NCBI GenBank assembly: GCA_964016885.1
Contig: OZ024743.1
Coordinates: 222,084,001 to 222,148,000 of the forward strand
Reading direction: 5' to 3'
Origin: Eledone cirrhosa
Lineage: Eukaryota
Length of the DNA: 64,000 nt
Within the stretch, counting starts at the first letter, position 1. Each line of letters begins with the position of its first letter. This document shows positions 1 to 54,853 of this stretch, piece after piece. The notes under the pieces were generated by a model. It was not told the DNA's origin and made no database searches. It saw nothing but the letters and a program-made list of their open reading frames with translations. Position numbers and translations under genes: made by a program.

Positions 1-1539
1 CCAGGAAAAGTCAGTGGGCCTGCAGCTCGGCACCTGGAGAGGCAGGTCCATGCCGTCCAACAGCGTCGTCGGGCGCTGGACGGACGGACCGGTTAAATTG
101 CTAGGGGTCTGGTTCGGTCCGGACCTCCAGACGGACAAAAACTGGGACGAGGTGACGAGCAGGGTGGCTTCTCTCACCCAGAAATGGGCGGAGAGGAAGC
201 TATCCCTGAAAGGTCGAGCGGAGGTGGCTAACGCGTACATCGCGTCTGTCATCTGCTACCGCCTAACCGTCGTACCTTGTCCTAAGCCTCGCCTGACTGC
301 GCTGGAGCGTTTGCTCTTTCGCTTTTTGTGGAAGGGACGTGCTCCGATGGTCAGGCGGTCCATCTGTTGTCAACACCCGCTACGTGGAGGGCTGGGCATG
401 CCGTGGCTGATGATGCGCAGGCACGCGCTCAGGCTACGACATCTCCACCTCTTCCTCGACGGTGATCAGGTGTGGTCGCCGTTTGCTAGACGCGTTTTTC
501 CCCAGCTCGTTTCCTTGACGGAGCTGCAGTCCTGGGTCAAGCGAAGACCGAGAGGGAGCGCCTGGAGACTGGAATGTCTTCAGGCGCTCACAGCCCTCGA
601 CCAATCGGGCAATGTGATCGGTGGAAACTCCACCTCGGCGTTCTATAGAGGATTAGTGGAGGGGAAGAGCGACGACGTACTTGGGGAAACTCTAGGCGTC
701 GACGAAAATCAACTAGCCAATCTCTTCGGAAGAACTTTCGGGCCGGGGCCTATGGACAACTTCCAGAAATCTCTGGCCTGGCAGTGCTACCGAGGAGCCT
801 TGCCAGTTCGGGATAAACTCTACAGGCATGGAGGTGCCGTCAGCCGGGCATGTCCGAGATGCGCGAAGGGCGACGAAACCGTCCTGCACGCACTCGTCCA
901 GTGTCCGAAAATTGCTGACTTGTGGGTTTATGTCGAACACCTGCTGTCGCGTTTAGGACGGATCCAGCTATCATCTGAGTCTATCGTGAGGATTGCCCCG
1001 CCCTCCTCCTTTAGCCGGGAAGGGCAGGCAGTTTTTATCTGTCTGGTGGCCATGGCGAAAGAGATAGTATGGTGGACACGTTTGAAAGGGCTGAAGACGA
1101 GCACTTACCTCTTCGGTGATGCTCTCATTGACTTTTTCAAATTTCATTTGAAAAGGAAAATCAGAGTAGAGAGGGAAGTGCTCTCTTCCCAGCATTTTGT
1201 TGAAAGATGGGTGAGAGAAGCAAGAATGGCCCGAGTGAATGGGCCTACTCTGAGCATATATCTGTAAATTAAAGGTGGAAAACTGGGAGAGGGCACTTGC
1301 CTTGGTGGTCAGGGTCATTGTGGCTTTTTACTGGGCTTTCACCACAAATGTCCCTCCGAAGTCTCCCCCCTATTGGGGAATTTTTCATTGTTATTTTCAT
1401 TGTTATTTTTGTTACATCCTCTGTTTTTGTTTTTTTTACACGCAGAAATGCCCATTTGTACCGTCCTGCATTGTCCTGCACTGTCCTTAATGTCTACTTT
1501 ATGTAAACCCTTGTGGTTAATAAAGAAATCATTATTATT
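1..1539 (+). mobile_element. Tx1-like copy 0 (3' part; cut by window edge)
   Basis: ORF2 C-terminus and 3'UTR are near-identical to copies A-F; tail is (ATT)3 at 1531-1539. Confidence 0.93.
2..1267 (+). CDS. ORF2 C-terminal part (RT thumb and CCHC zinc finger), 5'-incomplete
   Basis: Open frame matching the end of the 1139 aa ORF2, including CPRC..ETVLHALVQC. Confidence 0.9.
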   Translation, partial: QEKSVGLQLGTWRGRSMPSNSVVGRWTDGPVKLLGVWFGPDLQTDKNWDEVTSRVASLTQKWAERKLSLKGRAEVANAYIASVICYRLTVVPCPKPRLTALERLLFRFLWKGRAPMVRRSICCQHPLRGGLGMPWLMMRRHALRLRHLHLFLDGDQVWSPFARRVFPQLVSLTELQSWVKRRPRGSAWRLECLQALTALDQSGNVIGGNSTSAFYRGLVEGKSDDVLGETLGVDENQLANLFGRTFGPGPMDNFQKSLAWQCYRGALPVRDKLYRHGGAVSRACPRCAKGDETVLHALVQCPKIADLWVYVEHLLSRLGRIQLSSESIVRIAPPSSFSREGQAVFICLVAMAKEIVWWTRLKGLKTSTYLFGDALIDFFKFHLKRKIRVEREVLSSQHFVERWVREARMARVNGPTLSIYL

Positions 1540-1761
1540 TGAGTCTCAGTCATTGATGTTATTTAACTGGAAAGTTTGTTGAAATGAATATCAAGCCACT
1601 ACCTGCAGCCTCAGATATTCAGGACGTATCGGAGGGTTCTTACTGTTCCCAGCAAGCATGCCTTTTGAAGTGTTCCAAAAAGCGGGGCGAGACCAATTTT
1701 CTTTAACTATCCTTGGAAACTATTTGAGATAGTACCTAGTGCGCCTATGACAATCGGGACC
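1540..1761 (-). mobile_element. 3' end fragment of an R4/Dong-like (restriction-like endonuclease) non-LTR retrotransposon
   Basis: Minus strand 1760-1611 translates VPIVIGALGTISNSFQG*LKKIGLAPLFGTLQKACLLGTVRTLRYVLNI*. The PIVIGALG...LQKA.LLGT motif is typical of R4-clade C-termini. A ~70 nt 3'UTR then runs into a (TAA) tail. Confidence 0.8.
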
Positions 1762-2025
1762 AGTATGTGTCTGTAAATTAAAGGTGGAAAACTGGAAGAG
1801 GGCATTTTCCCTGGTGGTCAGGGTTACTGTGGCTTTTTAATGGGCTTTCTCCACGAATGTCCCTCGGAAGTCTCCCCCGTATTGGGGATTTTTCAGTGTT
1901 ATTTTTTTGTTACATCCTCTGTTTTTGTTTTTTACACGCAGAAATGCCCATTTATACCGCCCTGTATTGTCCTGTACTGTCCTTAATGTCTACTTTATGT
2001 AAACCCTTATGGTTAATAAAGAAAG

Positions 2026-2077
<52 letters not shown>
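1762..2077 (+). mobile_element. Severely 5'-truncated Tx1-like copy (3'UTR plus (ATT)17 only)
   Basis: Matches the last ORF2 codons and the 3'UTR. Diagnostic bases (agtatgtgtctg, ccctggtgg, ccctcggaag) resemble copy H more than the adjacent young copies. Confidence 0.9.
2027..2077 (+). repeat. (ATT)17 junction tract
   Basis: Pure ATT repeat directly before GAATG, the 5' end of copy A. Confidence 0.95.
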
Positions 2078-2290
2078 GAATGCCATGGTTGACGGAGGCT
2101 CGGCTCTGTAAGGTATAGTAATTTTTAACCGTTAAAACAATTGTAAATTGTTTAAAACTTGAACCAAATTGTTGATAAAGACACCCTCCTCCTCGTGAGA
2201 GGGGTCTTTCTGTCCGTTATTTGGCCCTTCGGGGTTAAATAACCAGTTATTGGGGTTTTGTACCCAAAATTTCATTTTAAACAAAAAAAC

Positions 2291-4391
2291 ATGGCTACCA
2301 AAAAAAAAAAATTTCATACGTCACTCCCACTCATTCCGTCTTCTTCTTCCTCAATCATCACTACAGGAGAGAGAAGATTGTCTCTCTCCCTCCCTTCTTT
2401 AAATGTGTCTCTCTCCCTACCTTCTCTTTCGCAAGCGACGAAAGAAAAGAAAAGTCTCGTGCAAAGCGTGCAAGGTTTCTCCACGACGACGACGACAGCG
2501 ACGAAACAGGTGTGCGGGAAATACGAAAACCCAGTTCATTCGTCTGACGTCAGGAATAATAGCAGTAGCAGCCGTAATAACAACAGCAACAGTGACAATG
2601 AAAACAACAGTAGCAGCCGCAACAGCATCACCAGCAGCATAAACAACAACAGCATTAGCAGCAGCAACACCAACAACAACCACAGCAACAGCGGCGGAGG
2701 CAGTAGTCGTAGTACCTGCAGCAACAACAAAAGTACCAGCAGCTCTGACGACAACAACAACAGCAGAGAAAAACCAATCTCATTTGCAGGTATTGCGAAA
2801 AACCTGGAAACAATCCTCATAACAAATGAGGAATTAGAGGAAGCGAAGAAGATGGTGACAAAGAACGGACACCGAGCAATCTGCAAGGCAGCGAAAAATT
2901 TTTTTCGAAACCCAAGAGCACTGTACGGTCACGTACCGTACAGTAAGTACAAAATCCCGTAGGGTGGAAAGAGCCACAGAGGCCCAAATACAAAAAGCCT
3001 TGGGGTCTGTGTGGCAGAGGAAAACGCACATCACCCGAGGCAAAAAATACGCCACCGTAGACGTACTTTTTGCCACACCCCAGGAGGCAAAGGCCCAATC
3101 AGTAGTGACCCTAAGGAGCGAGGAAATGGTGTTGGTGCCCTCCTACTGCGGGCAAAAAATTGTGAGGGTCAAACTGACCCACGTCCCCCCCGGAATGACC
3201 CCTTCTTGGCTGGCCGCGTCTGTCCTCGTCGGAATCGAGGACAAAACAACTGTACTGCAAGTACAGAAAAAAGTAAGAGAAGATTGGGTCGGCTCCTCCA
3301 TTGAGATGCTAATCCAAACCAACCAGGAGTGCATCGAAGCTATCCCGGATGTGATAGACTTCGATAACGGCACTCAACTGCCCATAAGTGTTGAGGGCAA
3401 ACGCCCGAAATGCTTTCGCTGTGGATCGAAGACTCACCTCAGGGCCTTCTGCAACGAGAAGACCCTGAGAAAGGAGAAAACCCCCCTCCTCCCGAATCCG
3501 GTTCCACGGCTACCAGCAACAGGACAAGCGGCAACCAGGAACGATAGGTCCGTGGCACCCATACCCACTCCACGGAAATCAAAGACAGCAGCAGCAGTGG
3601 AAATATTAACAACAACAACAGCAATACCAAATGCAGCTGCAACAGAGACTCCAGTGCAAACATCACCAACAACAACAAGTGAAAGAGTGGAGCTGGTACC
3701 CCTCCCCGACCTTACAGAATCAGACATGGAGTGTGAGGTGGGAGAGGGATGGCAAAAGGTCTCAAGAAGGCACAAACGCAGAAGCAGCGCATCGTCGCCT
3801 TTGAAAAGGGAGGAAAGAAATGAGAAAAGGGTAAAGTCTACTGCAAAGAGACCCACAGCAGCAACACCACCAACACCATCACCACCCACACCAGCACCAC
3901 CATCACCACCGGCGACAACCCCACCGCCAACAACACCTTCAACACCACCACCACAAGCACCAACATCGCAAACACAACAACAAAACACACACACCCAGCA
4001 ACAACGACAAGAAAATAGCAGAACCACACCCCACCCCCAGAAAAACAAATGCACGGCAATAAACACACACAACAAGAAACTAATGACTTACATAATTGAA
4101 CACACAGACATTTCACAACAGGACTACATAATACCAGCACCAATCAAAACGCCAACTAACATAAGACTGCTAAAAATAGCACAGAAACAATACACAAACA
4201 TTAAAACGAAATTTCCCAACGCAGTTGGTGATTTCAGGGACCTAGGAGGAACCATTAATCGAAGAGTATATTCAGACATTCTCTTAGAAGAGCCGACGAC
4301 CAGCCGAAGGGACGATTCAACGGTCCCTTCACCAGACGATCAAGTGAAAAGGGATGTAAAAACCATCCCTCCTCTACCAAAAATACGGTAA
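2291..4391 (+). pseudogene. ORF1 (gag-like nucleic-acid-binding protein), +1 frameshift
   Basis: Extra T in the T-run at ~2899-2905 (7 T versus 6 in other copies) splits the ORF; this could be a homopolymer sequencing error. Knuckle CFRCGSKTHLRAFC is present. Confidence 0.8.
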
Positions 4392-4426
4392 GTGGTCTTT
4401 CCCATCTTTTCCACTCTATTTTAAAC

Positions 4427-7400
4427 ATGACCTCACTCAGAATAGGCAGCATAAATGCGCGTGGCTTGGGGTCGTCATGGAAGCAGGGTCACCTGCTCAA
4501 CGACCTCAGGTCACTAAACATAGATGTAGTGGCCATCAGCGAGACCAGAATCTCCGAAGCACGGGCCTTCGCACCGATCTTCGGCGGCTACGATGTGTAC
4601 GCATCTCCCAGCCGTCCTGGATCCGGTGGAGGAGTTGCTGTACTTTTTCGGAGAGGTTTGGATCTCGCCATACGGGCCATCTTCCTGGACCCAGAGGGTA
4701 AGCTGGTGGTGCTGGACGTGACCAGCGGAGACGGGCAAGCCTTCAGGCTAGTGGCCGTCTATGCCCCGACAGGAGCAGGGCGGCCTGATTTCTTCCGGCG
4801 TCTGGAGACCTTTCTTGGAACGTCCCGCTCTTTAGTGTTAGTGGGCGACTGGAACGGGATCTTAGATGCACGCTGGGACTGTGTGGGATTAGCGGATAGG
4901 GGTGGAGGGTGCAAGAGCCTCACCAACCTGCTCAGGCGTTTTGAACTGTCTGACAGGTACCGATTGGATTTCCCGAATGTGCCAATGTGGACTTGGACAA
5001 ACCGCATAGGGTCATCCAGATCATATCTAGATAGAGTATTTTGTAGGGAAATAGATAGGTCTAGCATAGGCTGTCCACAATTCAAGATAGTCAGCTACAC
5101 GGACCACAAATTCGTGATCTGTGTGCTTGACTTAGATAGGCTTCATAGACGAGGACCCGGCTACTGGAAGCTAAACGCGTCCTTACCAGCGCGCAAGGCC
5201 TACAGAGACCGGATTAGCGAACTAGTTAAGCGGGCGTTGACGGGGGCCATCGTCAACAACAAGTGGTGGTTTGCTCTGAAAAGAGCGATTAGAATAGAAT
5301 CGATTAGGTTTAGTAAGGCTTTAGCAATAGAGAAAAATAGAGCAGAGGGAGAACTAGTTAGAAAATTAGACGAGGCGCTTAGCAAAGGCATTGCGACCGA
5401 CGTGCTTGCGGCGAAATTGGCCCTTGACCAATTCTTCAATGCAAAGCACGAAGGCTGCGTTGTCAGAGCTAGGGTGCGTGCTCTCAGACACGAGGGGACG
5501 AAAGCCGTTCAATGGGCCCGAGTGGCGGAGGCGCGTCGTGGCAACAAAGCCACGATCCGGTCTTTGGTGGACCACGACGGGCGCATGCTACTCGATCCCG
5601 GGCAAATGTGTGAAACTTTTCAGCGACACTTCGCTCAGCTGTTCGGGGGCAGCGGGGGGCCGGGTAGAGGGATGGACTTTAGTGTCTACCTCGACGGGCT
5701 GCCGCGGCTCTCGGCCACTGAGGCGAGGTGTTGCGAAAAGCCGATAACAGCCGCTGAAGTACGGGAGGCAATGACTGGCTGCACAAGGGGTAAATCGCCT
5801 GGTTTGGATGGTCTGCCCTATGAACTTTACGTACAGATGCCAGACTTGTTCGGAGGCCTCTTGGCGGACGTCTACTGCAACTGGCAACAGAACGGGAGAA
5901 TTCCCAGTTCTGTGAGCCGAGGAGCGGTGGCACTGCTGAGAAAGGATCCGAACAAGGGGGATAACATAGACAATTTCCGGCCCATAACTCTGCTAAACAC
6001 AGAGTTTAAGATTTTGGCCAAGGTGCTAGCAAAGAGGTTGGCGCTTGTCGTTGGTGGTCTGGTGGGAGAGGCGCAGACATGCGCCATTCCCGACAGATCC
6101 ATCCACGACAACCTCCACCTCATGCGATACATCGTAGAGAGGGTAGCTAGGGAACCTGGCACGGGTGGGTCCTTGATCAATTTAGATCAGTCGAAAGCTT
6201 TCGATAGGGTCGACCATCGTTACCTAGCGGCAGTCCTGAGGGCGGCTGGCTTTGGGCCCGTCTTCAGAGGCTGGATCGCTGCCATGCACAGCGACATCTG
6301 CTCTGTGGTGAGAGTGAACGGTCACCTGTCGGAACCGTTCAACATCATGCGCTCGGTCCGCCAAGGATGTCCCCTCTCGTCCCTCTTGTACGTATTGACT
6401 CTCGAGCCATTACTGCACAAACTGGAGACGTTGAGGGGAGTCCCGCGCGAACTAGGATGCGGAAGATCCGTGTCAGCATATGCGGACGATGTCACCGTAG
6501 TGGTGTCGAACGCCAAACACATCGAGGCGATCGGCACTACACTAAGAGAATACGAAGCGGTGACAGGAGCAATGATCAACCAGGAAAAGTCAGTGGGCCT
6601 GCAGCTCGGCACCTGGAGAGGCAGGTCCATGCCGTCCAACAGCGTCGTCGGGCGCTGGACGGACGGACCGGTTAAATTGCTAGGGGTCTGGTTCGGTCCG
6701 GACCTCCAGACGGACAAAAACTGGGACGAGGTGACGAGCAGGGTGGCTTCTCTCACCCAGAAATGGGCGGAGAGGAAGCTATCCCTGAAAGGTCGAGCGG
6801 AGGTGGCTAACGCGTACATCGCGTCTGTCATCTGCTACCGCCTAACCGTCGTACCTTGTCCTAAGCCTCGCCTGACTGCGCTGGAGCGTTTGCTCTTTCG
6901 CTTTTTGTGGAAGGGACGTGCTCCGATGGTCAGGCGGTCCATCTGTTGTCAACACCCGCTACGTGGAGGGCTGGGCATGCCGTGGCTGATGATGCGCAGG
7001 CACGCGCTCAGGCTACGACATCTCCACCTCTTCCTCGACGGTGATCAGGTGTGGTCGCCGTTTGCTAGACGCGTTTTTCCCCAGCTCGTTTCCTTGACGG
7101 AGCTGCAGTCCTGGGTCAAGCGAAGACCGAGAGGGAGCGCCTGGAGACTGGAATGTCTTCAGGCGCTCACAGCCCTCGACCAATCGGGCAATGTGATCGG
7201 TGGAAACTCCACCTCGGCGTTCTATAGAGGATTAGTGGAGGGGAAGAGCGACGACGTACTTGGGGAAACTCTAGGCGTCGACGAAAATCAACTAGCCAAT
7301 CTCTTCGGAAGAACTTTCGGGCCAGGGCCTATGGACAACTTCCAGAAATCTCTGGCCTGGCAGTGCTACCGAGGAGCCTTGCCAGTTCGGGATAAACTCT

Positions 7401-7846
7401 ACAGGCATGGAGGTGCCGTCAGCCGGGCATGTCCGAGATGCGCGCAGGGCGACGAAACCGTCCTGCACGCACTCGTCCAGTGTCCGAAAATTGCTGACTT
7501 GTGGGTTTATGTCGAACACCTGCTGTCGCGTTTAGGACGGATCCAGCTATCATCTGAGTCCATCGTGAGGATTGCCCCGCCCTCCTCCTTTAGCCGGGAA
7601 GGGCAGGCAGTTTTTATCTGTCTGGTGGCCATGGCGAAAGAGATAGTATGGTGGACACGTTTGAAAGGGCTGAAGACGAGCACTTACCTCTTCGGTGATG
7701 CTCTGATTGACTTTTTCAAATTTCATTTGAAAAGGAAAATCAGAGTAGAGAGGGAAGTGCTCTCTTCCCAGCATTTTGTTGAAAGATGGGTGAGAGAAGC
7801 AAGAATGGCCCGAGTGAATGGGCCGACTCTGAGTATATATCTGTAA
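4427..7846 (+). CDS. ORF2: APE endonuclease + reverse transcriptase + CCHC zinc finger (1139 aa)
   Basis: APE motifs SINARG, ISETR, VYAP, GDWN, YLDRVF, TDH; L1/Tx1 linker GPGYWKLN; RT motifs KSPGLDG, FRPITLLN, LDQSKAFDRV, RQGCPLS, YADD; C-terminal CPRC..H...C. Confidence 0.96.
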   Translation: MTSLRIGSINARGLGSSWKQGHLLNDLRSLNIDVVAISETRISEARAFAPIFGGYDVYASPSRPGSGGGVAVLFRRGLDLAIRAIFLDPEGKLVVLDVTSGDGQAFRLVAVYAPTGAGRPDFFRRLETFLGTSRSLVLVGDWNGILDARWDCVGLADRGGGCKSLTNLLRRFELSDRYRLDFPNVPMWTWTNRIGSSRSYLDRVFCREIDRSSIGCPQFKIVSYTDHKFVICVLDLDRLHRRGPGYWKLNASLPARKAYRDRISELVKRALTGAIVNNKWWFALKRAIRIESIRFSKALAIEKNRAEGELVRKLDEALSKGIATDVLAAKLALDQFFNAKHEGCVVRARVRALRHEGTKAVQWARVAEARRGNKATIRSLVDHDGRMLLDPGQMCETFQRHFAQLFGGSGGPGRGMDFSVYLDGLPRLSATEARCCEKPITAAEVREAMTGCTRGKSPGLDGLPYELYVQMPDLFGGLLADVYCNWQQNGRIPSSVSRGAVALLRKDPNKGDNIDNFRPITLLNTEFKILAKVLAKRLALVVGGLVGEAQTCAIPDRSIHDNLHLMRYIVERVAREPGTGGSLINLDQSKAFDRVDHRYLAAVLRAAGFGPVFRGWIAAMHSDICSVVRVNGHLSEPFNIMRSVRQGCPLSSLLYVLTLEPLLHKLETLRGVPRELGCGRSVSAYADDVTVVVSNAKHIEAIGTTLREYEAVTGAMINQEKSVGLQLGTWRGRSMPSNSVVGRWTDGPVKLLGVWFGPDLQTDKNWDEVTSRVASLTQKWAERKLSLKGRAEVANAYIASVICYRLTVVPCPKPRLTALERLLFRFLWKGRAPMVRRSICCQHPLRGGLGMPWLMMRRHALRLRHLHLFLDGDQVWSPFARRVFPQLVSLTELQSWVKRRPRGSAWRLECLQALTALDQSGNVIGGNSTSAFYRGLVEGKSDDVLGETLGVDENQLANLFGRTFGPGPMDNFQKSLAWQCYRGALPVRDKLYRHGGAVSRACPRCAQGDETVLHALVQCPKIADLWVYVEHLLSRLGRIQLSSESIVRIAPPSSFSREGQAVFICLVAMAKEIVWWTRLKGLKTSTYLFGDALIDFFKFHLKRKIRVEREVLSSQHFVERWVREARMARVNGPTLSIYL

Positions 7847-8106
7847 ACTAAAGGTGGAAAACTGGGAGAGGGCACTTGCCTTGGTGGTCAGGGTCATTGT
7901 GGCTTTTTACTGGGCTTTCTCCACAAATGTCCCTCCGAAGTCTCCCCCCTATTGGGGAATTTTTCATTGTTATTTTCATTGTTATTTTTGTTACATCCTC
8001 TGTTTTTGTTTTTTTACACGCAGAAATGCCCATTTGTACCGTCCTGCATTGTCCTGCACTGTCCTTAATGTCTACTTTATGTAAACCCTTGTGGTTAATA
8101 AAGAAA

Positions 8107-8108
<2 letters not shown>

Positions 8109-8159
<51 letters not shown>
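8109..8159 (+). repeat. (ATT)17 junction tract
   Basis: Pure ATT repeat between copies A and B. Confidence 0.95.
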
Positions 8160-8376: not shown

Positions 8377-10473
8377 ATGGCTACGAAAAAGAATTTGCAT
8401 AGGTCACTCCCACTCATTCCGTCTTCTTCTTCCTCAATCGTCACTACAGCAGAGAGAAGATTGTCTCTCTCCCTCCCTTCTTTAAATGTGTCTCTCTCCC
8501 TCCCTTCTCTTTCGCAAGTGACGAAAGAAAAGAAAAGTCTCGTGCAAAGCGTGCAAGGTTTCTCCACGACGACGACGACAGCGACGAAACAGGTGTGCGG
8601 GAAATACGAAAACCCAGTTCATTCGTCTGACGTCAGGAATAATAGCAGTAGCAGCCGTAATAACAACAGCAACAGTGACAATGAAAACAACAGTAGCAGC
8701 CGCAACAGCATCACCAGCAGCATAAACAACAACAGCATTAGCAGCAGCAACACCAACAACAACCACAGCAACAGCGGCGGAGGCAGTAGTCGTAGTACCT
8801 GCAGCAACAACAAAAGTACCAGCAGCTCTGACGACAACAACAACAGCAGAGAAAAACCAATCTCATTTGCAGGTATTGCGAAAAACTTGGAAACAATCCT
8901 CATAACAAATGAGGAATTAGAGGAAGCGAAGAAGATGGTGACAAACAACGGACACCGAGCAATCTGCAAGGCAGCGAAAAATTTTTTCGAAACCCAAGAG
9001 CACTGTACGGTCACGTACCGTACAGTAAGTACAAAATCCCGTAGGGTGGAAAGAGCCACAGAGGCCCAAATACAAAAAGCCTTGGGGTCTGTGTGGCAGC
9101 GGAAATCGCACATCACCCGAGGCAAAAAATATGCCACCGTAGACGTACTTTTTGCCACACCCCAGGAGGCAAAGGCCCAATCAGTAGTGACCCTAAGGAG
9201 CGAGGAAATGGTGTTGGTGCCCTCCTACTGTGGGCAAAAAATTGTGAGGGTCAAACTGACCCACGTCCCCCCCGGAATGACCCCTTCTTGGCTGGCCGCG
9301 TCTGTCCTCGTCGGAATCGAGGACAAAAGAACTGTACTGCAAGTACAGAAAAAAGTAAGAGAAGATTGGGTCGGCTCCTCCATTGAGATGCTAATCCAAA
9401 CCAACCAGGAGTGCATCGAAGCTATCCCGGATGTGATAGACTTCGATAACGGCACTCAACTGCCCATAAGTGTTGAGGGCAAACGCCCGAAATGCTTTCG
9501 CTGTGGATCGAAGACTCACCTCAGGGCCTTCTGCAACGAGAAGACCCTGAGAAAGGAGAAAACCCCCCTCCTTCCGAATCCGGCTCCACGGCTACCAGCA
9601 ACAGGACAAGCGGCAACCAGGAACGATAGGTCCGTGGCACCCATACCCACTCCACGGAAATCAAAGACAGCAGCAGCAGTGGAAATATTAACAACAACAA
9701 CAGCAATACCAAATGCAGCTGCAACAGAGACTCCAGTGCAAACATCACCAACAACAACAAGTGAAAGAGTGGAGCTGGTACCCCTCCCCGACCTTACAGA
9801 ATCAGACATGGAGTGTGAGGTGGGAGAGGGATGGCAAAAGGTCGTAAGAAGGCACAAACGCAGAAGCAGCGCATCGTCGCCTTTGAAAAGGGAGGAAAGA
9901 AATGAGAAAAGGGTAAAGTCTACTGCAAAGAGACCCACAGCAGCAACACCACCAACACCATCACCACCCACACCAGCACCACCATCAGCACCGGCGACAA
10001 CCCCACCGCCAACAACACCTTCAACACCACCACCACAAGCACCAACATCGCAAACACAACAACAAAACACACACACCCAGCAACAACGACAAGAAAATAG
10101 CAGAACCACACCCCACCCCCAGAAAAACAAATGCACGGCAATAAATACACACAACAAGAAACTAATGACTTACATAATTGAACACACAGACATTTCACAA
10201 CAGGACTACATAATACCAGCACCAATCAAAACGCCAACTAACATAAGACTGCTAAAAATAGCACAGAAACAATACACAAACATTAAAACGAAATTCCCCA
10301 ACGCAGTTGGTGATTTCAGGGACCTAGGAGGAACCATCAATCGAAGAGTATACTCAGACATTCTCTTAGAAGAGCCGACGACCAGCCGAAGGGACGATTC
10401 AACGGTCCCTTCACCAGACGATCAAGTGAAAAGGGATGTAAAAACCATCCCTCCTCTACCAAAAGTACGGTAA
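8377..10473 (+). CDS. ORF1 gag-like protein (698 aa)
   Basis: Ser/Asn-rich N-terminus, globular core, C-x2-C-x4-H-x4-C knuckle, basic NLS-like patch, Pro/Thr-rich tail; located upstream of ORF2. Confidence 0.9.
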   Translation: MATKKNLHRSLPLIPSSSSSIVTTAERRLSLSLPSLNVSLSLPSLSQVTKEKKSLVQSVQGFSTTTTTATKQVCGKYENPVHSSDVRNNSSSSRNNNSNSDNENNSSSRNSITSSINNNSISSSNTNNNHSNSGGGSSRSTCSNNKSTSSSDDNNNSREKPISFAGIAKNLETILITNEELEEAKKMVTNNGHRAICKAAKNFFETQEHCTVTYRTVSTKSRRVERATEAQIQKALGSVWQRKSHITRGKKYATVDVLFATPQEAKAQSVVTLRSEEMVLVPSYCGQKIVRVKLTHVPPGMTPSWLAASVLVGIEDKRTVLQVQKKVREDWVGSSIEMLIQTNQECIEAIPDVIDFDNGTQLPISVEGKRPKCFRCGSKTHLRAFCNEKTLRKEKTPLLPNPAPRLPATGQAATRNDRSVAPIPTPRKSKTAAAVEILTTTTAIPNAAATETPVQTSPTTTSERVELVPLPDLTESDMECEVGEGWQKVVRRHKRRSSASSPLKREERNEKRVKSTAKRPTAATPPTPSPPTPAPPSAPATTPPPTTPSTPPPQAPTSQTQQQNTHTQQQRQENSRTTPHPQKNKCTAINTHNKKLMTYIIEHTDISQQDYIIPAPIKTPTNIRLLKIAQKQYTNIKTKFPNAVGDFRDLGGTINRRVYSDILLEEPTTSRRDDSTVPSPDDQVKRDVKTIPPLPKVR

Positions 10474-38791: not shown

Positions 38792-38813
38792 TTCATTTTA
38801 AACCAAAAAAAAC

Positions 38814-39187: not shown

Positions 39188-39218
<31 letters not shown>

Positions 39219-40986: not shown

Positions 40987-41020
40987 GTGGTCTTTCCTAT
41001 CTTTTCCACTCCATTTCAAC

Positions 41021-44432: not shown

Positions 44433-44472
<40 letters not shown>

Positions 44473-44681: not shown

Positions 44682-46679
44682 ATGGCTAATTCACCACTGC
44701 ACCAAGCAGCTGAAAGCCTTTCTCACAAATTAACACCTCACACCGACACCACCATTGTAAATGATTATACGTCTTCCAACACAAATAAATTAAGCACTAG
44801 CAATATTTTAAATTTGTCTCAGGCAGACATTCATTTCCCACCATTACCAATGACTGAAGGTGTTAAAGCCGCCACCACCACCACCACCGCGACAACCACC
44901 ACCCCCACCACCACCGCGACAGCAGAAACAAAAGGAAAAAATAAATCAACTCGTGATGTCGAAATATTTTCAACCAAAATAGACTCTCCCAAACCTACTT
45001 TCACTGACGTCACCACCACCACAACTGAAACTAAAATTAATAATAACAAAAATAACGATAGCAACAACAACAACAATGACATTAAAAAAATCACCCTCAG
45101 TTTTGTCAGAGTAGCAAAACAGTTCGAAGCATTTACGGTAACTCAGGAGGATTTAGAAAATGCCAAACAAATGGTAAAGAAAGATGGATACAGGGTCAGC
45201 CTCACCCACCCACCCCACCCCACACCTAATAAAATGGAGCATCGGCGCCTATGCACCGTGTCGTATCGAACAATAAATGTAAAATCGCGCCGAGTGGAAC
45301 GGGCATCCGAGTCCCAAATCCAAAAAGCTTTGGGACATGTGTGGGCAAGAAAAACCCACATCAGACGTGGGCAGAAGTATGGAACCGTGGACGTGTTCTT
45401 TGAAACACCAGAGGAGGCCAGAGAACACTCCATGGCCCCATTAAGAAGTGACGACTTCACACTCGTCCCAAGCTATTGTGGCCAGAGACTCGTAAAGATC
45501 AGGGTGACCCACGTTCCACCGGCCATCGAAATTCCCTGACTAATAGCGGCCGTCCTCGCCGGCATCGAAGCCAACACAAAAATAATAGCAATAACAAAAG
45601 AAAAGCAGGAGAACTGGTCCGGATCTGGGATGGAGCTCCTGATCCAAGCGGACCAAAAAAGCATTGAGGAGATCCCAGAGGTAATAGACCTCACTGACGG
45701 CAGCCACCTCACCGTAATTGTCGAGGGCAGAAGGCCTAGGTATGTCGTTTGTGGTGAAGGAACCCACCTAAGAGCTTTCTGCCCTCAGGCTAAAAGGTTG
45801 AGGCCACCTCTCCTACCCACCCCAGTGACACAACCAACAACACCACCAGTAGCAGAGATGGCAGCAACAAATGTAGCAGCAACAACAGAAGCAACTATAA
45901 CAGCAACAACCCCAGCAACAGTAGCAAAACCAACACCACCACCACCAGTAAAACCAACACCACCACCACCCAACGCTTCAGAACTAGCACCAGCGCCTAC
46001 ACCATCCACCACGCCACAACCAAAACTAACGCCTGTGGAGGATTTTCCACTCCCCGGCCTATCACAACTGGAGACAGATTGTGACGACGAGGAGTGGGAA
46101 ACGGTATCCGGAAAAAAAAAAAGAAACCAAAAAAGAAAAAATTCTCTTCCTTCCCCCTCCAAAAACAAAATACAGAGGGAAACAAATAAATTAAGAAACA
46201 AAAAAGTTAGGACAGATATGCCACCATCCACACCAGCATCACCAACCCCATCAACCCAAACACCAACTCCATCACCATCATTAACCCCAACACCACCATC
46301 ACCTACACCACAAAAGTCACCAAAATGCGAAACAGAAACAAACCCACAACAAACGCAAACAAAACAAAACAACCAAAACGATACACACTACACAGCATTA
46401 AATTTGAACAACAAGCAATTATTACACTACATCCAACACAACACCAGCATCACAGAAAAAGACTACACAACAACACCAAAATTCACACCACCTCCACACA
46501 TACAAATCACTCGCATCACACAGAAAACGTACATGACACTAAAACAAAAATTCCCCAAAGACATCGGAGACTTCCGACAAGCACTCTCCAGGAGGATTTA
46601 TAAGGACATCCTTCCTGAGGAGGCCACAAGCAGTGAAAAGGATGGAAAAACCGTCCTTCCCCTACGAGAAGAAAGGTAA
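44682..46679 (+). pseudogene. Divergent ORF1 (type 2) with one nonsense codon
   Basis: Core motifs align with ORF1 of A-F (CTVSYRT..KSRRVERASESQIQKALG, LVPSYCGQ, CGEGTHLRAFC); termini do not align. TGA at 45537-45539, frame continues. Confidence 0.88.
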
Positions 46680-46713
46680 GTGGTCTTTCCCATCTTTTCC
46701 ACTCCTTTTCAAC

Positions 46714-49700
46714 ATGACCTCACTCAGAATAAGCAGCATAAATGCGCGTGGCTTGGGGGTCGTCATGGAAGCAGGGCCACCTGCTCAACGACCTCAGGTC
46801 ACTAAACATAGATGTAGTGGCCATCAGCGAGACCAGAATCTCCGAAGCACAGGCCTTCGCACCGATCTTCGACGGCTACGATGTGTACGCATCTCCCAGC
46901 CGTCCGGGATCGGGGGGAGGAGTTGCTGTGCTTTTTCGGAGAGGTTTGGATCTTGCCATACGGGCCATCTTCCTGGACCCAGAAGGTAAGTTGGTGGTGC
47001 TGGACGTGGCCAGCGGAGACGGGCAAGCTTTCAGGTCAGTGGCCGTCTATGCCCCGACAGGAGCAGGGCGGCCTGATTTCTTCCGGCGTCTGGAGACCTT
47101 TCTTGGAACGTCCCGCTCTTTAGTGTTAGTGGGCGACTGGAACGGGATCTTAGATGCACGCTGGGATTGTGTGGGATTAGTGGATAGGGAAGGAGGGTGC
47201 AAGAGTCTTACCAACCTGCTCAGGCGTTTTGAACTGTCTGACAGGTACCGAATGGATTTCCCGAATGTACCAATGTGGACTTGGACAAATCGCATAGGGT
47301 CATCCAGATCATATCTAGATAGAGTATTTTGTAGGGAAATAGATAAGTCTAGCATAGGCTGTCCACAATTCAAGATAGTCAGCTACACGGACCACAAATT
47401 CGTAATCTGTGTGCTTGACTTAGATAGGCTTCATAGAAGAGGACCCGGCTACTGGAAGCTAAACGCGTCCTTACCAGCGCGCAAGGCCTACAGAGACCGG
47501 ATTAGTGAACTAGTTAAGCGGGCGTTGACGGGGGCCATCGTCAACAACAAGTGGTGGTTTGCTCTGAAAAGAGCAATTAGAATAGAGTCTATTAGGTTTA
47601 GTAAGGCTTTAGCAATAGAGAAAAATAGAGCAGAGGGAGAATTAGTTAGAAAATTAGACGAGGCGCTTAGCAAAGGCATCGCGACCGACGTACTTGCGGC
47701 GAAATTGGCCCTTGACCAATTCTTCAATGCAAAGCACGAAGGCTGCGTTGTCAGAGCTAGGGTGCGTGCTCTCAGACACGAGGGGACGAAAGCCGTTCAA
47801 TGGGCCCGAGTGGCGGAGGTGCGTCGTGGCAATAAAGCCACGATCCGGTCTTTGGTGGACCACGACGGGCGCATGCTACTCGATCCCGGGCAAATGTGTG
47901 AAGCTTTTCAGCGACACTTCGCTCAACTGTTCGGGGGCAGTGGCGGGCCGGATCGAGGGATGAACTTTAGTGTCTACCTCGACGGACTGCCGCGGCTTTC
48001 GGCCACTGAGGCGGAGTGTTGCGAAAAGCCGATAACAACCGCTGAAGTACGGGAGGCAATGACTGGCTGCACAAGGGGTAAATCGCCTGGTTTGGATGGT
48101 CTGCCCTATGAACTTTACGTACAAATGCCAGACTTGTTCGGAGGCCTCTTGGCGGACGTCTACTGTAACTGGCAACAGAACGGGAGAATTCCCAGCTCTG
48201 TGAGCCGAGGAGCGGTGGCGCTGCTGAGAAAGGATCCGAACAAGGGGGATAACATAGATAATTTTAGGCCCATAACTCTGCTAAACACAGAGTTCAAGAT
48301 TTTGGCCAAGGTGCTAGCAAAGAGGTTGGCGCTTGTCGTTGGTGGTCTGGTGGGAGAGGCGCAGACATGCGCCATTCCCGACAGATCCATCCACGACAAC
48401 CTCCACCTCATGCGATACATCGTAGAGAGGGTAGCTAGGGAACCTGGCACGGGTGGGTCTTTGATCAATTTAGATCAGTCGAAACCTTCGATAGGGTCGA
48501 CCATCGTTACCTAGCGGCAGTCCTGAGGGCGGCTGGCTTTGGGCCCGTCTTCAGAGGCTGGATCGCTGCCATGCACAGCGACATCTGCTCTGTAGTGAAA
48601 GTGAACGGTCACCTTTCGGAACCGTTCAACATCATGCGCTCGGTCCGCCAAGGATGTCCCCTCTCGTCCCTCTTGTACGTATTGACTCTCGAGCCATTAC
48701 TGCACAAACTGGAGACGTTGAGGGGGGTCCCGCGTGAACTAAGATGCGGAAGATCCGTGTCAGCATATGCCGACGATGTCACCGTAGTGGTGTCGAACGC
48801 CAAACACATCGAGGCGATCGGCACTACACTAAGAGAATACGAAGCGGTGACAGGAGCAATGATCAACCAGGAAAAGTCAGTGGGCCTGCAGCTCGGCACC
48901 TAGAGAGGCAGGTCCATGTGTCCAACAGCGTCGTCGGGCGCTGGACGGACGGACCGGTTAAATTGCTAGGGGTCTGGTTCGGTCAAGACCTCCAGACGGA
49001 CAAAAACTGGGACGAGGTGACGAGCAGGGTGGCTTCTCTCACCCAGAAATGGGCGGAGAGGAAGCTATCCCTGAAAGGTCGAGCGGAGGTGGCGAATGCG
49101 TACATCGCGTCCGTCATCTACTACCGCCTGACCGTCGTACCTTGTCCTAAGCCCCGCCTGACTGCGCTGGAGCGTTTGCTCTTTCGCTTCTTGTGGAAGG
49201 GACGTGCTCCGATGGTCAGGCGGTCCAACTGCTGTCAACACCCGCTACGTGGAGGGCTGGGCATGCCGTGGCTGATGATGCGCAGACACGCGCTCAGGCT
49301 ACGATATCTCCACCTCTTCCTCGACGGTGATCAGCTGTGGTCGCCGTTTGCTAGACAAATTTTTCCCCAGCTCGTCTCCTTGACGGAGCTGCAGTCCTGG
49401 GTCAAGCGAAGACCGAGAGGGAGCGCTTGGAGACTGGAATGTCTTCAGGCGCTTACAGCCCTCGACCAATCGGGCAATGTGATCGGTGGAAACTCCACCT
49501 TGGCGTTCTATAGGGGATTAGTGGAGGGGAAGAGCGACGACGTACTAAGAGAAACTCTAGGAGTCGACGAAAATCAACTAGCCAATCTCTTCGGAAGGAC
49601 TTTCGGGCCGGGGCCTATGGACAACTTCCAGAAATCCCTGGCCTGGCAGTGCTACCGGGGAGCCTTGCCAGTTCGGGATAAACTCTACAGGCATGGAGGT

Positions 49701-50132
49701 GCCGTCAGCCGTGCATGTCCGAGATGCGCGCAGGGCGACGAAACCGTCCTGCACGCACTCGTCCAGTGTCCGAGCATTGCTGACTTGTGGGTTTATGTCG
49801 AACACCTGCTGTCACGTGTAGGACGGATCCAGCTATCACCTGAGTCCATCGTGAGGATTGCCCCGCCCCCTTCTTTTAGCCGGGAAGGGCAGGCAGTTTT
49901 TATCTGTCTGGTGACCATGGCGAAAGAGATAGTATGGTGGACACGTTTGAAAGGGCTGAAGACGAGCACTTACCTCTTCGGTGATGCCCTGATTAACTTT
50001 TTCAAATTTCATTTAAAAAGGAAAATCAGGGTAGAGAGGGAAGTGCTCTCTTCCCAGCATTTTGTTGAAAGATGGGTGAGAGAAGCAAGTATGGCCCGAA
50101 TGAATGGGCCTTCTCTGAGTATGTGTCTGTAA
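46714..50132 (+). pseudogene. ORF2 of copy H (disrupted)
   Basis: Very similar to young ORF2; frameshifts at ~46757, ~48485 and ~48919, stop at 48901. Confidence 0.92.
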
Positions 50133-50603
50133 ATTAAGGGTGGAAAACTGGGAGAGGGCACTTGCCCTGGTGGTCAGGGTCACTGTGGTCTTTTAATGGG
50201 CTTTCTCCACAAATGTCCCTCGGAAGTCTCCCCCCTATTGGGGAATTTTTCTTTGTTATTTTATTTCATCCTCTGTTTTTTACACGCAGAAATGCCCATT
50301 TGTACCGTCCTGTATTGTCCTGTACTGTCCTTAATGTCTACTTTATGTAAACCCTTGTGGTTAATAAAGAAAACATTATTATTATTATTATTATTATTAT
50401 CGGTCTGTTCGGACGCCTTTTGCTCGCTCCCAGTAAGTCGCTTTATTTGCCTGTTAAAATTATTTGTTGTTAAGTATTTCTTGTTGTGTAAGGGATATAA
50501 GCCCTTAGATTTTGCCCTGTTAAGGGGAAAGTAAAATATGTGGGCCTTTTAGCCCAAATATTTGAACATTTTACTTTTAAAAAAAAAATGTTTCAAAAAA
50601 AAC

Positions 50604-51193
50604 ATGGCTGAGCCACGCCCCCAGCAATATGTCTGCTGTCGTCTGACAACGGCGTAAAAGTTGAGAGGCGGGTTACAAACATTGTTACAACAGACACCAC
50701 CACAAACAACGGGAACAAAGACAACACTGAGAACACTAATTTCGAAAAAATTACCACACCAACTACAACAATAACAGCGTCAACCAAAATACAGACAACA
50801 GAAAAAAATGACAACAAATGCAACAACGATATTAACACCACTAACAAGAAAATAAACAACGACAACACCAACAGCAACAATGCAGATTGCACCGAAAACA
50901 ACAACAACGGTGGCACCAAAAACACAACCAGCTACAACAGTGATAACAGCAACAACACCAACAACACCGTTCGTAGCAGTAACAACAGCAACAACACCAA
51001 CAACAAGACCAGTAGCGGTAGCAATAATGGTGCCGCTGAAAAAGGGGCCACTTCTTTCGCAGGTGTGGCCCGAAATATAGACTTCAGAGGGTCGGTTACC
51101 AAGAGGATATACACCGACATCCTCTTGGAAACACCCATGACCAGCCAAAGGGACGGTTCTACTGTCCCTTCACCACACGATCAAGGTAAGTGA
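50604..51193 (+). pseudogene. Internally deleted ORF1 (type 3)
   Basis: aacATGGCT start, early frameshift, Asn/Thr-rich stretch, then TSFAGVARNI joined directly to DFRGSVTKRIYTDILLE..STVPSPHDQ. Core and knuckle are missing. Confidence 0.75.
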
Positions 51194-51225
51194 TCCTTTC
51201 TCACTTACCCCGTTTCTCATCCAAT

Positions 51226-54200
51226 ATGGCCGTACTTAGAATAGGCAGTATAAATATACGTGCCCTGGGGTCATCTTGGAAGCAGGGTCACCTGCTCAAC
51301 GACCTCAGGTCACTAAACATCAGCGAGACCAGAATCTCCGAAGCATGAGCCTTCGCGCCGATCTTCGGCGGCTACGATGTATACGCATCCGTCCGGGAGA
51401 GGGGTTGCCGTGCTTTTTCGGAGAGGCTTGGATCTCGCGATACGGGCCATCTTCCTGGACCCAGAAGGTAAGTCGGTGGTGCTGGACGTGACCGGCAGCG
51501 AAGGCAATTCTTTCAGGCTAGTAGACGTCTACGCCCCAACAGGAACAAGACGGCTAGATTTCTTCAGACGTCTAGAAACCTTTCTTGGAACGTCCCGCTC
51601 TTTAGTGTTAGAGGATGACTGGAACGGTATCTTAGATGCACGCTGGGATTGTGTGGGGCTAGTAGACAGGGCAGGAGGGCGTAAAAGCCTCAACAACCTG
51701 CTCAGACGTCTTGAACTGTCTGACAGGTATAGACTGGATTATCCGAATGTGCCCATGTGGACATGGCCAAACCGCATCGGGTCATCCAGATCGTATTTAG
51801 ATAGGGTATTCTGTAGGGAAACAGATAAGGCTAGTGTAGGTTGTCCACAATTTAAAGTAGTCGACTACACGAACCACAAATTTGTGATCTGTGAAGTTGA
51901 CATAGATAGACTCCATAGGCAAGGGCCCGGCTACTGGAAGCTGAACGCGTCGTTCCCGGCGCGCAAAGCTTACAGAGACCGGATTAGCGAATTAGTTAAG
52001 CGTGCGTTGACGGATGCGATCGTCAACAACAGGTGGTGGTTTACCCTGAAAAGGGCTATTAGAGTTGAATTGATAAGGTTTAGCAAAGGAGTAGTTATAG
52101 AGGAAAATAGAGTAGAGAGAGAGTTAGTTAGAAATCTAGAAGAGGCGTTAGGACAGGCATCGCAACCGACGTATTTGCGGCGAGATTGGCACTCGACCAC
52201 TTCTTCAACGCAAAGTATGAAGGTTGCGTTGTCAGAGCTAGAGCGCGTACTCTAAGACACGGGGGCATGAAAGCCGTTCAATGGGCCCGGGTGGTGGAGG
52301 CGCGACGTGGCAACAAGTCCACAATTCGATCTTTGCCTGATCAAAACGGGCGCATGTTGCTCGAACCCGAGCAGATGTGTGCGGCTTTTCAACAGCACTT
52401 CTTCTCAATTGTTCGGGAGCGGCGGCGGGCCGGATCGGAGTATACTTTTCGGTGCATACGTCGACGGACTGCCGCGGCTCTCGACGACCGCTGCGCAGTA
52501 CTGCGAAAGGCCGATAACAGCAGGTGAAATACGGGGCGCGATGTATGACTGCACGAGGGGTAAATCGCCAGGTTTGGATGGTCTGCCCTACGAGCTTTAT
52601 GCGTATATGCCAGACCTGTTCGGCGACCTCTTGGTAGATGTCTACTACAACTGGCAGGAGAACGGAAGCATTCCCAGTTTTGTGAGCCGGGGAGCGGTGG
52701 CGCTGCTGAGAAAAGACCCGAACAAGGGGGACGTTATAGACAACTTCAGGCCCATAACTCTGCTAAACGCAGAGTTTAAGATTTTGGCCAAGGTGTTAGC
52801 AAAGAGATTGGCGCTTTTCGTCGGTGATCTGCTAGGAGAGGCGCAGACATGCGCCATATCGGACAGATCCATCCACGACAAACTCCATCTCATGCGATAC
52901 ATCATAGAGAGGGTGGTTAAGGAACCTGGCACGGGTGGGGCCCTGATCAACTTGGATCAATCTAAAGCATTTGATTGGGTCGACCACCGGTACCTGGCTA
53001 CGGTCCTCGAGGTAGCCGACTTCGAGCCCGTTTTTAGGGGCTGGATAGCTACGATGCACAGTGACATCTGCTCGATTGTGAGGGTGAAAGGTCACCTGTC
53101 GCAGCCTTTCAGCATCATGCGCTCGGTCCGCCAGGGTTGTTCCCTCTCGTCCCTCCTGTATGTACTGGCCCTCGAGCTCTTACAGCACAAATTGGAGACG
53201 ATGAGGGGGCCCCACGCGAACTGGGATGCGAGAGATCCGTGTCAGCTTACGCCGACGACGTCACCGTGGTGGTGTCGACCACTAAACACTTCCAGATGCT
53301 CGGCACCGCTCTCAAGGAATACAAAGCGGTGACAGGAGCAAAGGTAAACCAGGAAAAGTTGGTGGGCTTGCAACTCGGCACCTGGAGAGGCAAGTCCATG
53401 CCGTCCGACAGCGTCGTGGGGCGCTGGACGGAAGGACCGATTAAATTGCTTGGGGTCTGAACCTCCAGATGGAGAAAAACTGAAGCGAGGTGACGAGCAG
53501 GGTGGCCTCTCTCATCCAGAAATGGGCCGAGAGGAGGCTGTCTCTGAAAGGTCGGGCGGAGGTGGCGAATGCGTACATAGCGTCCGTCATCTGCTAACGC
53601 CTGACCTTCGTACCTTGCCCCCGCCCAACTCTGACCAAAATGGAGCGCCTTCTCTTCCGCTTTTTGTGGAAGGGACGTGCTCCCATGGTCAGACGATCCA
53701 TTTGCTGTCAACACCCGTTGTGTGGAGGACTAGGCATGCCGTGGCTGATGATGCGCAAACATGAGCTGAGGCTGCGACATCTCTGGTGCTTCCTTGACGG
53801 TGGACAGGTGTGGTCGCCGTTTGCCAGACGCGCTTTTCCCCAGCTCGTCTCCTTGACGGAGCTGCAGTCCTGGATCAGGAAAAGACCGAGGAATAGCGCT
53901 TGGAAGCTGGAATGTCTCCAAGCGCTCACCACGCTCTACCAGCTGGGCCCTAGTATCGGTGGAACATCCACCTCGGCGTTCTATAGAGGGCTAGTGGAGG
54001 GGAAGAGCGACGACGTTCTCGGGAAGACCCTGGGCGTCGAAGACGATCATCTGTTCGCTCTCTTCAAGAGAACTTTCAGCCCGGGCCTATGGACAACTTC
54101 CAGAAATCCCTGGCCTGGCAGTGCTACCGGGGAGCGTTACCGGTTCGGGATAAGCTCTACAGGCACGGAGGTGCTGTCAGCCGAGCCTGTCTGAGATGCG

Positions 54201-54583
54201 CGCAGGGCGACAAAACTGTCCTGCACGCACTCGGTCAGTGCCCGAGTATTGCTGACTTGTAGAGCTATGTCGAACAGCTGCTATCGCGTGTAGGACGGAT
54301 CCAGTTATCGACTGAGTCCATTGTGCAGATAGCCCCGCCATCCTCCTTTAAAGAGGAGGAAGGGCAGGCAGTTTTCATCTGCCAGGTGGCCATGGCGAAA
54401 GAGATTGTGTGGTAGATAAGGTTGAAAGGGTTGAAGACGTACACTTTACTCTCCGGCCAATCCCTGATTAACTTTTTCAAGTTGGAGAGGTGAGTGCTGT
54501 CTTCTAGTAAGTTTGTTTAAAAGTGGATGAAAGTAGCGACTCTGGTCCGAGTGAACGGGCCCGCTCTGAGTATGCGCCTGTAG
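51226..54583 (+). pseudogene. ORF2 of copy I (diverged, disrupted)
   Basis: MAVLRIGSIN start; APE and RT motifs recognisable (YADD at ~53248); many stops and frameshifts. Confidence 0.9.
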
Positions 54584-54853
54584 ATTGAGGAGTGGGAGAA
54601 CTGAGAGAGGGTGCTTGCCCTGGTGGTTAGGGTGGCTGTGGTCTTTTGTGTGGTTTTCGCCACGAGTGACCCTCCAGAAACTCACCTTATTGACTTCTGC
54701 AGAAATTGTAAAGTATGACAGTATGGTGACTAATGTCAGGATACGATCTGTAATTCCACCCTTACGGAAACTAAAGTATATGTTGACAATTTAAAAACTA
54801 TAATATCTTTTATCTCTATTTCATGCCGCAAAAACTGGCGATGGGCCGGCGAC

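Follow-up and report, generated by a model that had tools for sequence, protein, structure and literature searches.

How does a genome come to hold a row of long retrotransposons, head to tail and in one orientation, with runs of ATT triplets at their junctions? The question is raised by a 64,000-nucleotide stretch of Eledone cirrhosa DNA (assembly GCA_964016885.1, contig OZ024743.1, positions 222,084,001 to 222,148,000 of the forward strand), here called the window. Most of it consists of copies of a long interspersed nuclear element (LINE) with two open reading frames (ORFs). A preliminary description, made from the letters of the window alone, proposed that the element inserts into (ATT)n, that this repeat is also its own tail, and that each insertion regenerates targets. 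The reading we favor, at a probability of about 0.75, is that LINE families of L1/Tx1 type insert at (ATT)n in one orientation and phase, and that the array arose by repeated targeted insertion together with partial local duplication and recombination.

The specificity for ATT is seen genome-wide. We counted 5' ends of the commonest type in the array, which begins GAATG, by an exact 29-base pattern across the genome. The pattern occurs 2,334 times, and 2,287 of these 5' ends (98.0%) are directly preceded by ATTATT, where about 1.5 would be expected by chance (a rate of 6.5e-4 per base, taken from 76 kb of neighbouring DNA). Whether dispersed copies lack ATT at the 5' flank had been set beforehand as a test of the proposal; they carry it. 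Exact young 3' ends number 6,113, and 5,884 (96.3%) run directly into ATT. A family is considered target-specific when one flank type is found in more than 20% of copies (PMC4494074), and both proportions lie above this value. A first DNA search had returned 13 loci, which would have made this a rare family confined to the array; the exact pattern ruled that out.

The tracts lie in varied surroundings. The first 30 GAATG 5' ends on contig C1 all follow at least five in-phase ATT units, and the DNA beyond those tracts is unique DNA, tails resembling short interspersed elements (SINEs), Dong-like LINE fragments or, at 11 of the 30 loci, other copies. In one subfamily, all 46 dispersed copies retrieved have at least four ATT units at the 5' end; a 47th is among the C1 loci just described. 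Two further families begin GGCGA and GGTC. At least six in-phase units precede the GGCGA element in 30/30 loci and at least three precede the GGTC element in 24/30, these being the best-scoring 30 of 1,388 and of 1,446 candidates, respectively. The proposed specificity is thus strongly supported for three families. Their 5' ends had been called poorly alignable, and local alignment of the 5' untranslated regions (UTRs) between families indeed gives short AT-rich matches only. The genome holds at least 65,958 ATT tracts of five or more units.

Several observations concern the targets themselves. Many target tracts come from a very common short repeat that ends AGAAAC(A)(ATT)n and is probably an ATT-tailed SINE. 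It lies in the 5' flanks of loci L004, L008, L009, L055, L059 and L196, and similar repeats lie in the window at 55,400-56,200, 59,000-59,200 and 61,300-61,600. Two truncated copies (L180/L224 and L222) join (CTT)n, a Koshi-type repeat, on the 5' side and ATT on the 3' side; flanks often contain tracts in which TTC and ATT are mixed. In the 3' flank of L271 (C1, 62.86 Mb) two copies stand tail to tail over (ATT)4(AAT)n, with insertion on both strands of a composite tract. The element is also present at high depth, with its own fixed variants, in sequencing run X7 from another organism; judged from this run, the family is abundant in at least one further species.

What kind of element is this? 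ORF2 (1,139 aa) matches the Pfam domains PF03372 (APE), PF00078 (reverse transcriptase, RT) and PF13966 (zf-RVT). Its best match among solved structures is human L1 ORF2p (E 1e-51, over the endonuclease (EN) and RT; E 1e-21 for R2), and the catalytic motifs of the endonuclease align with those of L1 EN. The nearest named protein comes from Argonauta hians, with 73% identity in the RT, a match that by itself makes an octopod host likely. ORF1 (698 aa) has one CCHC knuckle in its sequence and no Pfam hit; Atlas look-alikes (scores 0.90-0.93, a lead only) contain zf-CCHC, ZCCHC3-like RNA-binding or RRM domains. The order N-terminal APE, RT, C-terminal zinc finger, with L1 as the best solved LINE match, is that of the L1 group (L1 and Tx1). 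The two ORFs, an AATAAA signal at the 3' end, target-site duplications and 5' truncation are further marks of that group, to which, by these features, the element belongs. An ORF1 of RRM plus CCHC type is consistent with Tx1 (PMC5203782). From its apparent ORF1 type and its target specificity, the element is probably a member of the Tx1 clade; no labelled Tx1 reference sequence was among the matches that similarity searches returned.

The array had been put at more than 54 kb. As assembled it is bigger, with about 24 kb more to the left: it measures 78,642 bases, from window position -23,949 to 54,692, so that the window holds its right part only. It contains 13 full-length or near-full-length LINE copies (11 of GAATG type, plus copies H and I) and three short fragments. 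On the left, where 100 kb beyond the window was searched, it begins at -23,949 with an old-family fragment, followed by (ATT)7, a 487 bp spacer, (ATT)17 and then copies U1 to U4. The window itself is laid out as follows.

1 to 1530, forward strand: 3' part of copy U4, a full-length GAATG-type copy that begins 4,501 bases left of the window; the whole copy has both ORFs open.
1531 to 1539, forward strand: (ATT)3, opening a 547 bp segment repeated from the left end of the array.
1540 to 1762, reverse strand: 3' end of an abundant LINE of restriction-like endonuclease (RLE) type with an AAT tail, putatively Dong-like, oriented opposite to the array.
1762 to 2026, forward strand: 265 bp from the 3' end of a 5'-truncated element of a related subfamily, with 88-90% identity to copies C and H.
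2027 to 2077, forward strand: (ATT)17 junction tract.
2078 to 8108, forward strand: copy A, GAATGCC type, with a frameshift in ORF1 and an open ORF2; its nearest relative, 16 substitutions away, lies on contig C1.
8160 to 14191, forward strand: copy B, GAATGCT, of a locally enriched subfamily, preceded by (ATT)17 at 8109-8159 and with both ORFs open.
8377 to 10473, forward strand: ORF1 of copy B, 698 aa, with one CCHC knuckle and a predicted RNA-binding region; no Pfam hit.
10509 to 13928, forward strand: ORF2 of copy B, 1,139 aa, with APE-type endonuclease, reverse transcriptase and zf-RVT.
14213 to 20234, forward strand: copy C, GAATGCC type, preceded by (ATT)7 at 14192-14212 and with both ORFs open; its nearest relative, 25 substitutions away, lies on C1.
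20256 to 26284, forward strand: copy D, locally enriched subfamily, a mosaic, after (ATT)7 at 20235-20255; both ORFs open.
26327 to 32358, forward strand: copy E, locally enriched subfamily, preceded by (ATT)14 at 26285-26326 and with both ORFs open.
32377 to 38403, forward strand: copy F, GAATGCC type, preceded by (ATT)6 at 32359-32376; ORF1 contains a stop and ORF2 is open; its nearest relative, 27 substitutions away, lies on C1.
38452 to 44433, forward strand: copy G, older GAATG subfamily, preceded by (ATT)16 at 38404-38451 and with both ORFs broken.
44473 to 50374, forward strand: copy H, GGCGA family, after (ATT)13 at 44434-44472; ORFs broken.
50402 to 54692, forward strand: copy I, older GGTC family, preceded by (ATT)8 ATC at 50375-50401; it is decayed, lacks its 3' end and closes the array on the right.

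Re-reading the window bore out the tract lengths and element ends given earlier: tracts of 3, 17, 17, 7, 7, 14, 6, 16, 13 and 8 units start at 1531, 2027, 8109, 14192, 20235, 26285, 32359, 38404, 44434 and 50375, and every element 3' end reads AATAAAGAAA(T/G/A)C directly before ATT. The earlier account of the reading frames also stands: ORF2 is open in A to F and in as much of the first copy as the window holds, both ORFs are open in B to E, and G, H and I are broken. Another statement does not. Host DNA was said to be absent between copies, yet 1540-1762 is the reversed 3' end of an unrelated LINE, followed by the 5'-truncated fragment, whose own 5' junction has no ATT. The 3-unit tract thus leads into this foreign fragment and not into a full-length copy.

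Units A to H are each 5.9-6.0 kb long, and A to F are about 99% identical. Copy G differs from A to F in ORF1. Copy H is about 96% identical to C in the ORF2 region and has its own 5' UTR and ORF1. Copy I, whose 3' truncation lies near 54,680, has 81% identity to C in ORF2. When H (44473-46630) is set against C (14213-16470), the ORF1 core is only about 49% identical and the 5' UTR differs, pointing to swapping of 5' UTR and ORF1 between families.

How did the array grow? We built a tree from 10 array copies and 31 copies from C1, and distances were taken over 76 aligned copies. Copies A, C and F differ from copies on C1, another chromosome, by the 16, 25 and 27 substitutions listed above, and from adjacent array copies of the other subfamily by 44-78. 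Because their nearest relatives sit on C1, A, C and F are shown by the tree as independent arrivals. G, H and I are likewise shown, by their membership in older subfamilies or families, as independent insertions.

The other seven copies behave differently. U1 to U4, B, D and E are members of one subfamily, which makes up 54 of the 2,334 genomic copies and 7 of the 11 GAATG copies in the array (p 1e-9). Their median distance among themselves is 28 substitutions, vs 86 (minimum 41) to 35 dispersed full-length members; 11 further members were left out of this count as deleted, interrupted or without a 3' end. Between the neighbours U1 and U2 there are 4 substitutions. Among the array copies 5/11 come directly after a 17-unit tract, vs 0/76 of the dispersed GAATG copies, and the spacer at 1540-2026 is 100% identical to the one at -23,264 to -22,778, with the same 17-unit tract after each. 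In a satellite-like array neighbours are closer to one another than to dispersed copies; this holds for U1 to U4, B, D and E and fails for A, C, F, G, H and I. These relationships point to local amplification of the seven related copies. With at least 65,958 tracts available, random targeting alone would be insufficient. The earlier claim that tandem duplication cannot explain the array therefore survives in part. Nested independent insertion stands for A, C, F, G, H and I; the twice-present spacer with its tract, the closeness of U1 and U2 and the seven copies that are each other's closest kin speak against the claim for the rest.

Could the related copies be products of retrotransposition rather than crossover? 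On this account the array is a resident source locus, where an active copy is transcribed and its products integrate in cis. We regard it as possible, though less likely than not. Both ORFs are open in 7/7 related array copies vs 5/35 dispersed members of the subfamily (p 3e-5), the ratio of nonsynonymous to synonymous change (dN/dS) for private ORF2 changes is 0.18 in the array vs 0.63 in dispersed copies, and U4 is the nearest array copy to most dispersed members. An active source should, however, seed dispersed young copies, and 0/35 lie within 40 substitutions. Array-only changes are also nearly absent from U1 to U4, and the 17-unit tract recurs among them, as expected of DNA duplication. 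The source-locus account can nevertheless hold for B, D and E beside the one we prefer. From the sequences, mixed growth is the best reading: targeted insertion throughout, a U1 to U4 block formed by DNA-level duplication and recombination, and either route for B, D and E.

Among U1 to U4 and A to F, blocks of shared variants are shuffled, and the same blocks occur in dispersed copies. This pattern shows what appears to be frequent recombination or template switching within the family.

The 5' junctions suggest how the second half of integration might work. At least four in-phase ATT units stand at the 5' junction in 105/105 full-length copies vs 7/20 5'-truncated copies (Fisher p 5e-13; the truncated set comprised 23 records, of which one internal deletion and two duplicates were dropped). 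Because of this contrast, the RNA of full-length copies probably includes ATT from upstream, which would anneal to the target. G is the first base in all families. The preliminary description had the third family start CGGTC; in 20/30 GGTC loci the last unit of the tract is altered (ATC|GGTC), and 6/30 keep ATT (ATT|GGT), so that this family begins at G too. The common start at G and the inherited ATC variant fit an RNA that begins in the upstream tract and a cDNA end that anneals there.

The uniform junction could also be made without such an RNA leader, if the second-strand cut were itself ATT-specific and in phase. The 98% phase-exact 5' junctions agree with this, as do long duplications that end at ATT tracts and several truncated junctions that fit ATT plus microhomology. 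We consider it unlikely, since the duplications of the truncated copies L135, L215 and L232 end outside ATT, 13/20 truncated copies lack a 5' tract, and the inherited ATC variant requires upstream bases in the template. As those three duplications end outside ATT, the second nick would need no ATT.

Long tract-bounded duplications are found twice: the 547 bp segment in the array, and 888 bp at 99.9% identity around L259. L259 differs from its neighbours by 33 and 57 substitutions, with no breakpoint and 14 private sites, and was rejected on these grounds as a tandem duplicate or crossover chimera of them. For the array's 547 bp duplication, unequal crossover would yield the same structure as annealing. 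Five further candidates (L239, L279, L298, L303 and L307) were set aside as long duplications, because their 96-99% identity fits separate insertions of young families. L259 lies in a five-copy cluster (L257-L260 and L273, C1:55,422,000-55,456,000) in which the 888 bp Dong-like fragment is duplicated on both sides of one copy. Five copies on C1 form the longest other cluster among the first 100 of the 2,334 places listed. L290 and L291 (C4, 181.87-181.89 Mb), 8.8 kb apart, have the same 5' flank and 13-unit tract and differ in body and 3' flank; by this comparison they are possibly another long duplication. No Rfam match to a 5' ribozyme was found over 38,300-51,000, and a loose descriptor screen for an HDV-like ribozyme, run without a positive control, gave no match.

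Is the ATT at the 3' end a tail or a target? It had been described as the element's own tail. At seven loci (L134, L209, L215, L218, L228, L244 and L254) the 3' tract has only 0-1 unit. Target duplications with non-ATT markers measure 14, 11, 17 and 7 nt in the truncated copies L135, L215, L232 and L228, and L236 has a 34 nt duplication that contains an interruption. Where the target was imperfect, the imperfection is present on both sides of the insertion. From the tracts of 0-1 unit and the duplicated imperfections it therefore follows, as far as these junctions go, that the 3' ATT is mostly target plus target-site duplication, with no encoded tail. Regeneration of targets, as first proposed, is supported in the form of target-site duplication and not by way of the element's own tail.

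An encoded ATT tail could be combined with an array built wholly by nested insertion from dispersed sources, with no duplication at the DNA level. Several features sit well with that account: a junction type common to three families with different 5' ends, the grouping of A, C and F with C1 copies, decayed copies at both array ends with intact ones inside, and array-only coding changes that look selected. The marker-bearing duplications and the shortest 3' tracts, however, make the 3' ATT a target, and seven copies of a 54-copy subfamily, the 4 substitutions between U1 and U2, five 17-unit tracts and an identical spacer would be hard to obtain from genome-wide sources. We judge this account quite improbable.

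Shared 3' flanks first suggested 3' transduction as a candidate, which was rejected: each of these flanks is the tail of one of two RLE-type LINE families, with differing cut points. An empty-site comparison with paralogues of the L094 flank gave no readable empty site, the downstream flank itself being another repeat.

A mechanism can be proposed that would join these junctions. The APE endonuclease would nick the (AAT)n strand, and the last base of the element would thus always meet the A of ATT. If target-primed reverse transcription runs as usual, this first nick would fall at a T/A step in 3/4 marked cases; the L1 endonuclease prefers such steps. The nicked AAT end would then pair with read-through AUU just behind AAUAAA and prime reverse transcription (step 1). 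Because the primer would pair with this read-through, no poly(A) would be inserted, and none is present in the 3' flanks of the insertions examined. A second nick 7-34 nt downstream, made regardless of sequence, would duplicate the target (step 2). Full-length RNA would start within the upstream tract, and the cDNA end would anneal to ATT, giving the uniform 5' junction (step 3). Annealing might occasionally take place at the next tract, hundreds of bases off, producing the long tract-bounded duplications. One tract would become two, both of them new targets (step 4). We infer the order of these events, as well as the part of unequal crossover in array growth. It is possible, although we hold this far more tentatively, that the LINE carries the target repeat at both RNA ends, anneals at both and makes its own landing sites, and that the array is a source locus of its own making, which retains intact copies and vies with Dong-like elements, tail to tail, for one microsatellite.

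Some points weigh against our preferred reading of targeted insertion with partial local duplication. Array-only coding changes number 9 nonsynonymous to 13 synonymous, mostly in B, D and E (p 4e-4 vs the site ratio, p 0.012 vs dispersed copies). For these three copies such a depletion of amino-acid changes would be easier to reconcile with retrotransposition from sources under selection than with DNA duplication followed by neutral decay. The dispersed full-length GAATG copies compared number 66, and closer relatives possibly lie outside this sample. Clear long duplications are only two (the array, and one of the 51 loci examined), with L239 ambiguous. Later deletions may account for some of the 20 truncated junctions, in which case the contrast with full-length copies would be overstated. 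Four sequencing runs give short contigs, with no read or contig across the array.

Least probable of all is that the left block, the first spacer with U1 to U4, is an assembly artefact such as two haplotypes placed end to end: the spacer and 17-unit tract do occur twice at 100%, U1 and U2 are nearly identical and no contig in the four runs crosses the stretch, yet U1 to U4 are 20-63 substitutions from A to F, and so do not repeat that block, the left-hand neighbour of one spacer differs from that of the other, and the same geometry is found at L259. Such an artefact would leave the ATT specificity unaffected.

The foreign LINE at 1540-1762 bears on the same target. Its family is abundant (1,036 candidates) and ends in AAT repeats. 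It encodes an RT, a CCHC finger and a C-terminal nuclease-like motif, which we take to be a restriction-like nuclease; its PDB match to R2 is not significant (E 0.47). Dong has a C-terminal restriction-like endonuclease. By its build and tail the foreign LINE appears to be Dong-like. At its dispersed loci (L106-L123), 18/18 3' ends printed lie in ATT/AAT-rich tracts, as do several truncated 5' ends, and the family is likely a cephalopod Dong family that shares the ATT/AAT target. Tails of two Dong-like families form the 3' flank, tail to tail, at 12 of 30 loci of the array element, two of these loci being a duplicated pair. A second RLE-type family with an AAT tail (L144:74-1325, forward strand), often tail to tail with the array element, was noted in the 3' flanks of L125, L130, L137, L140, L147, L152 and L095.

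How do these elements compare with known systems? Kibi, Koshi and the crocodilian Tx1 families insert in (TC)n, (TTC)n and (TTCC)n/(TTTC)n, respectively (PMC4494074, PMC3812793). Like the array element, they are two-ORF LINEs of L1/Tx1 type with an APE endonuclease and a microsatellite target. The difference from Kibi and Koshi is that the array element's target is (ATT)n, made of A and T only, with TTC runs only further out in some flanks. The main text of PMC4494074, its Fig. 3 and supplement aside, names no ATT target, and none is named in the portions consulted of PMC11203168 and PMC3747384. In the literature, Repbase/Dfam and a 2004 cross-genome screen aside, we found no Tx1 family specific for ATT/AAT. 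(ATT)n is thus an added target for L1/Tx1-type elements, where microsatellite-targeting Tx1, TAA-targeting Dong and R1 arrays were already known.

Dong targets (TAA)n (PMC3812793) and is listed with R4 (PMC3774820). It has the same microsatellite, and two Dong-like families share these tracts in the present genome. It differs in having a single ORF and AAT on the sense strand, whereas the array element has two ORFs, an N-terminal APE and sense-strand ATT. Because Dong reads AAT and the array element ATT, the two come to lie tail to tail, which is convergent use of one target. Dong-R4 and L1-Tx1 elements are both reported to be abundant in cephalopods (PMC10294476, PMC13282606, PMC8967140). Two unrelated endonuclease types thus converge on one microsatellite, in opposite orientations, within one genome.

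Drosophila R1 arrays consist of head-to-tail copies; repeated insertion formed them and unequal exchange then enlarged them (McGurk and Barbash, PMC5932611). These arrays and transposable element dimers resemble the present one in their head-to-tail LINE copies parted by duplicated target. Here, in contrast, the target is a dispersed microsatellite and not ribosomal DNA, and the array holds three families, a foreign fragment and many intact copies. It offers a worked example of a two-step route from targeted insertion to a satellite-like block. In R2, uniform 5' junctions and inherited junction variants are attributed to cDNA annealing to upstream target (PMC3774820), and the array element families have both kinds of junction. 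R2 uses an HDV-like ribozyme and a 28S co-transcript, whereas the RNA leader of the array element is a putative one. Human LINE-1 is the best structural match over EN and RT and shares AATAAA and short target duplications. The array element differs from it in lacking poly(A) in the insertions examined, in an ORF1 apparently of CCHC type rather than Transposase_22 and in its strict target.

With 6,113 exact young 3' ends and a full length of about 6 kb, thousands of young copies are a visible force in a 3 Gb genome, and the family probably both uses and multiplies the genome's ATT tracts. Full-length and truncated copies contrast at their 5' junctions, and this, with the rare tract-bounded duplications of 0.5-0.9 kb, makes the little-understood second half of LINE integration testable with the intact copies B to E.

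Outside the array, about 20 kb of uniform 30% GC lies to the left (L022, L023; window about -100,000 to -80,000) and is possibly a satellite. To the right of copy I, short dispersed repeats at 54,850-55,110, 56,835-57,013 and 63,789-63,882 share 84-96% identity with one another.

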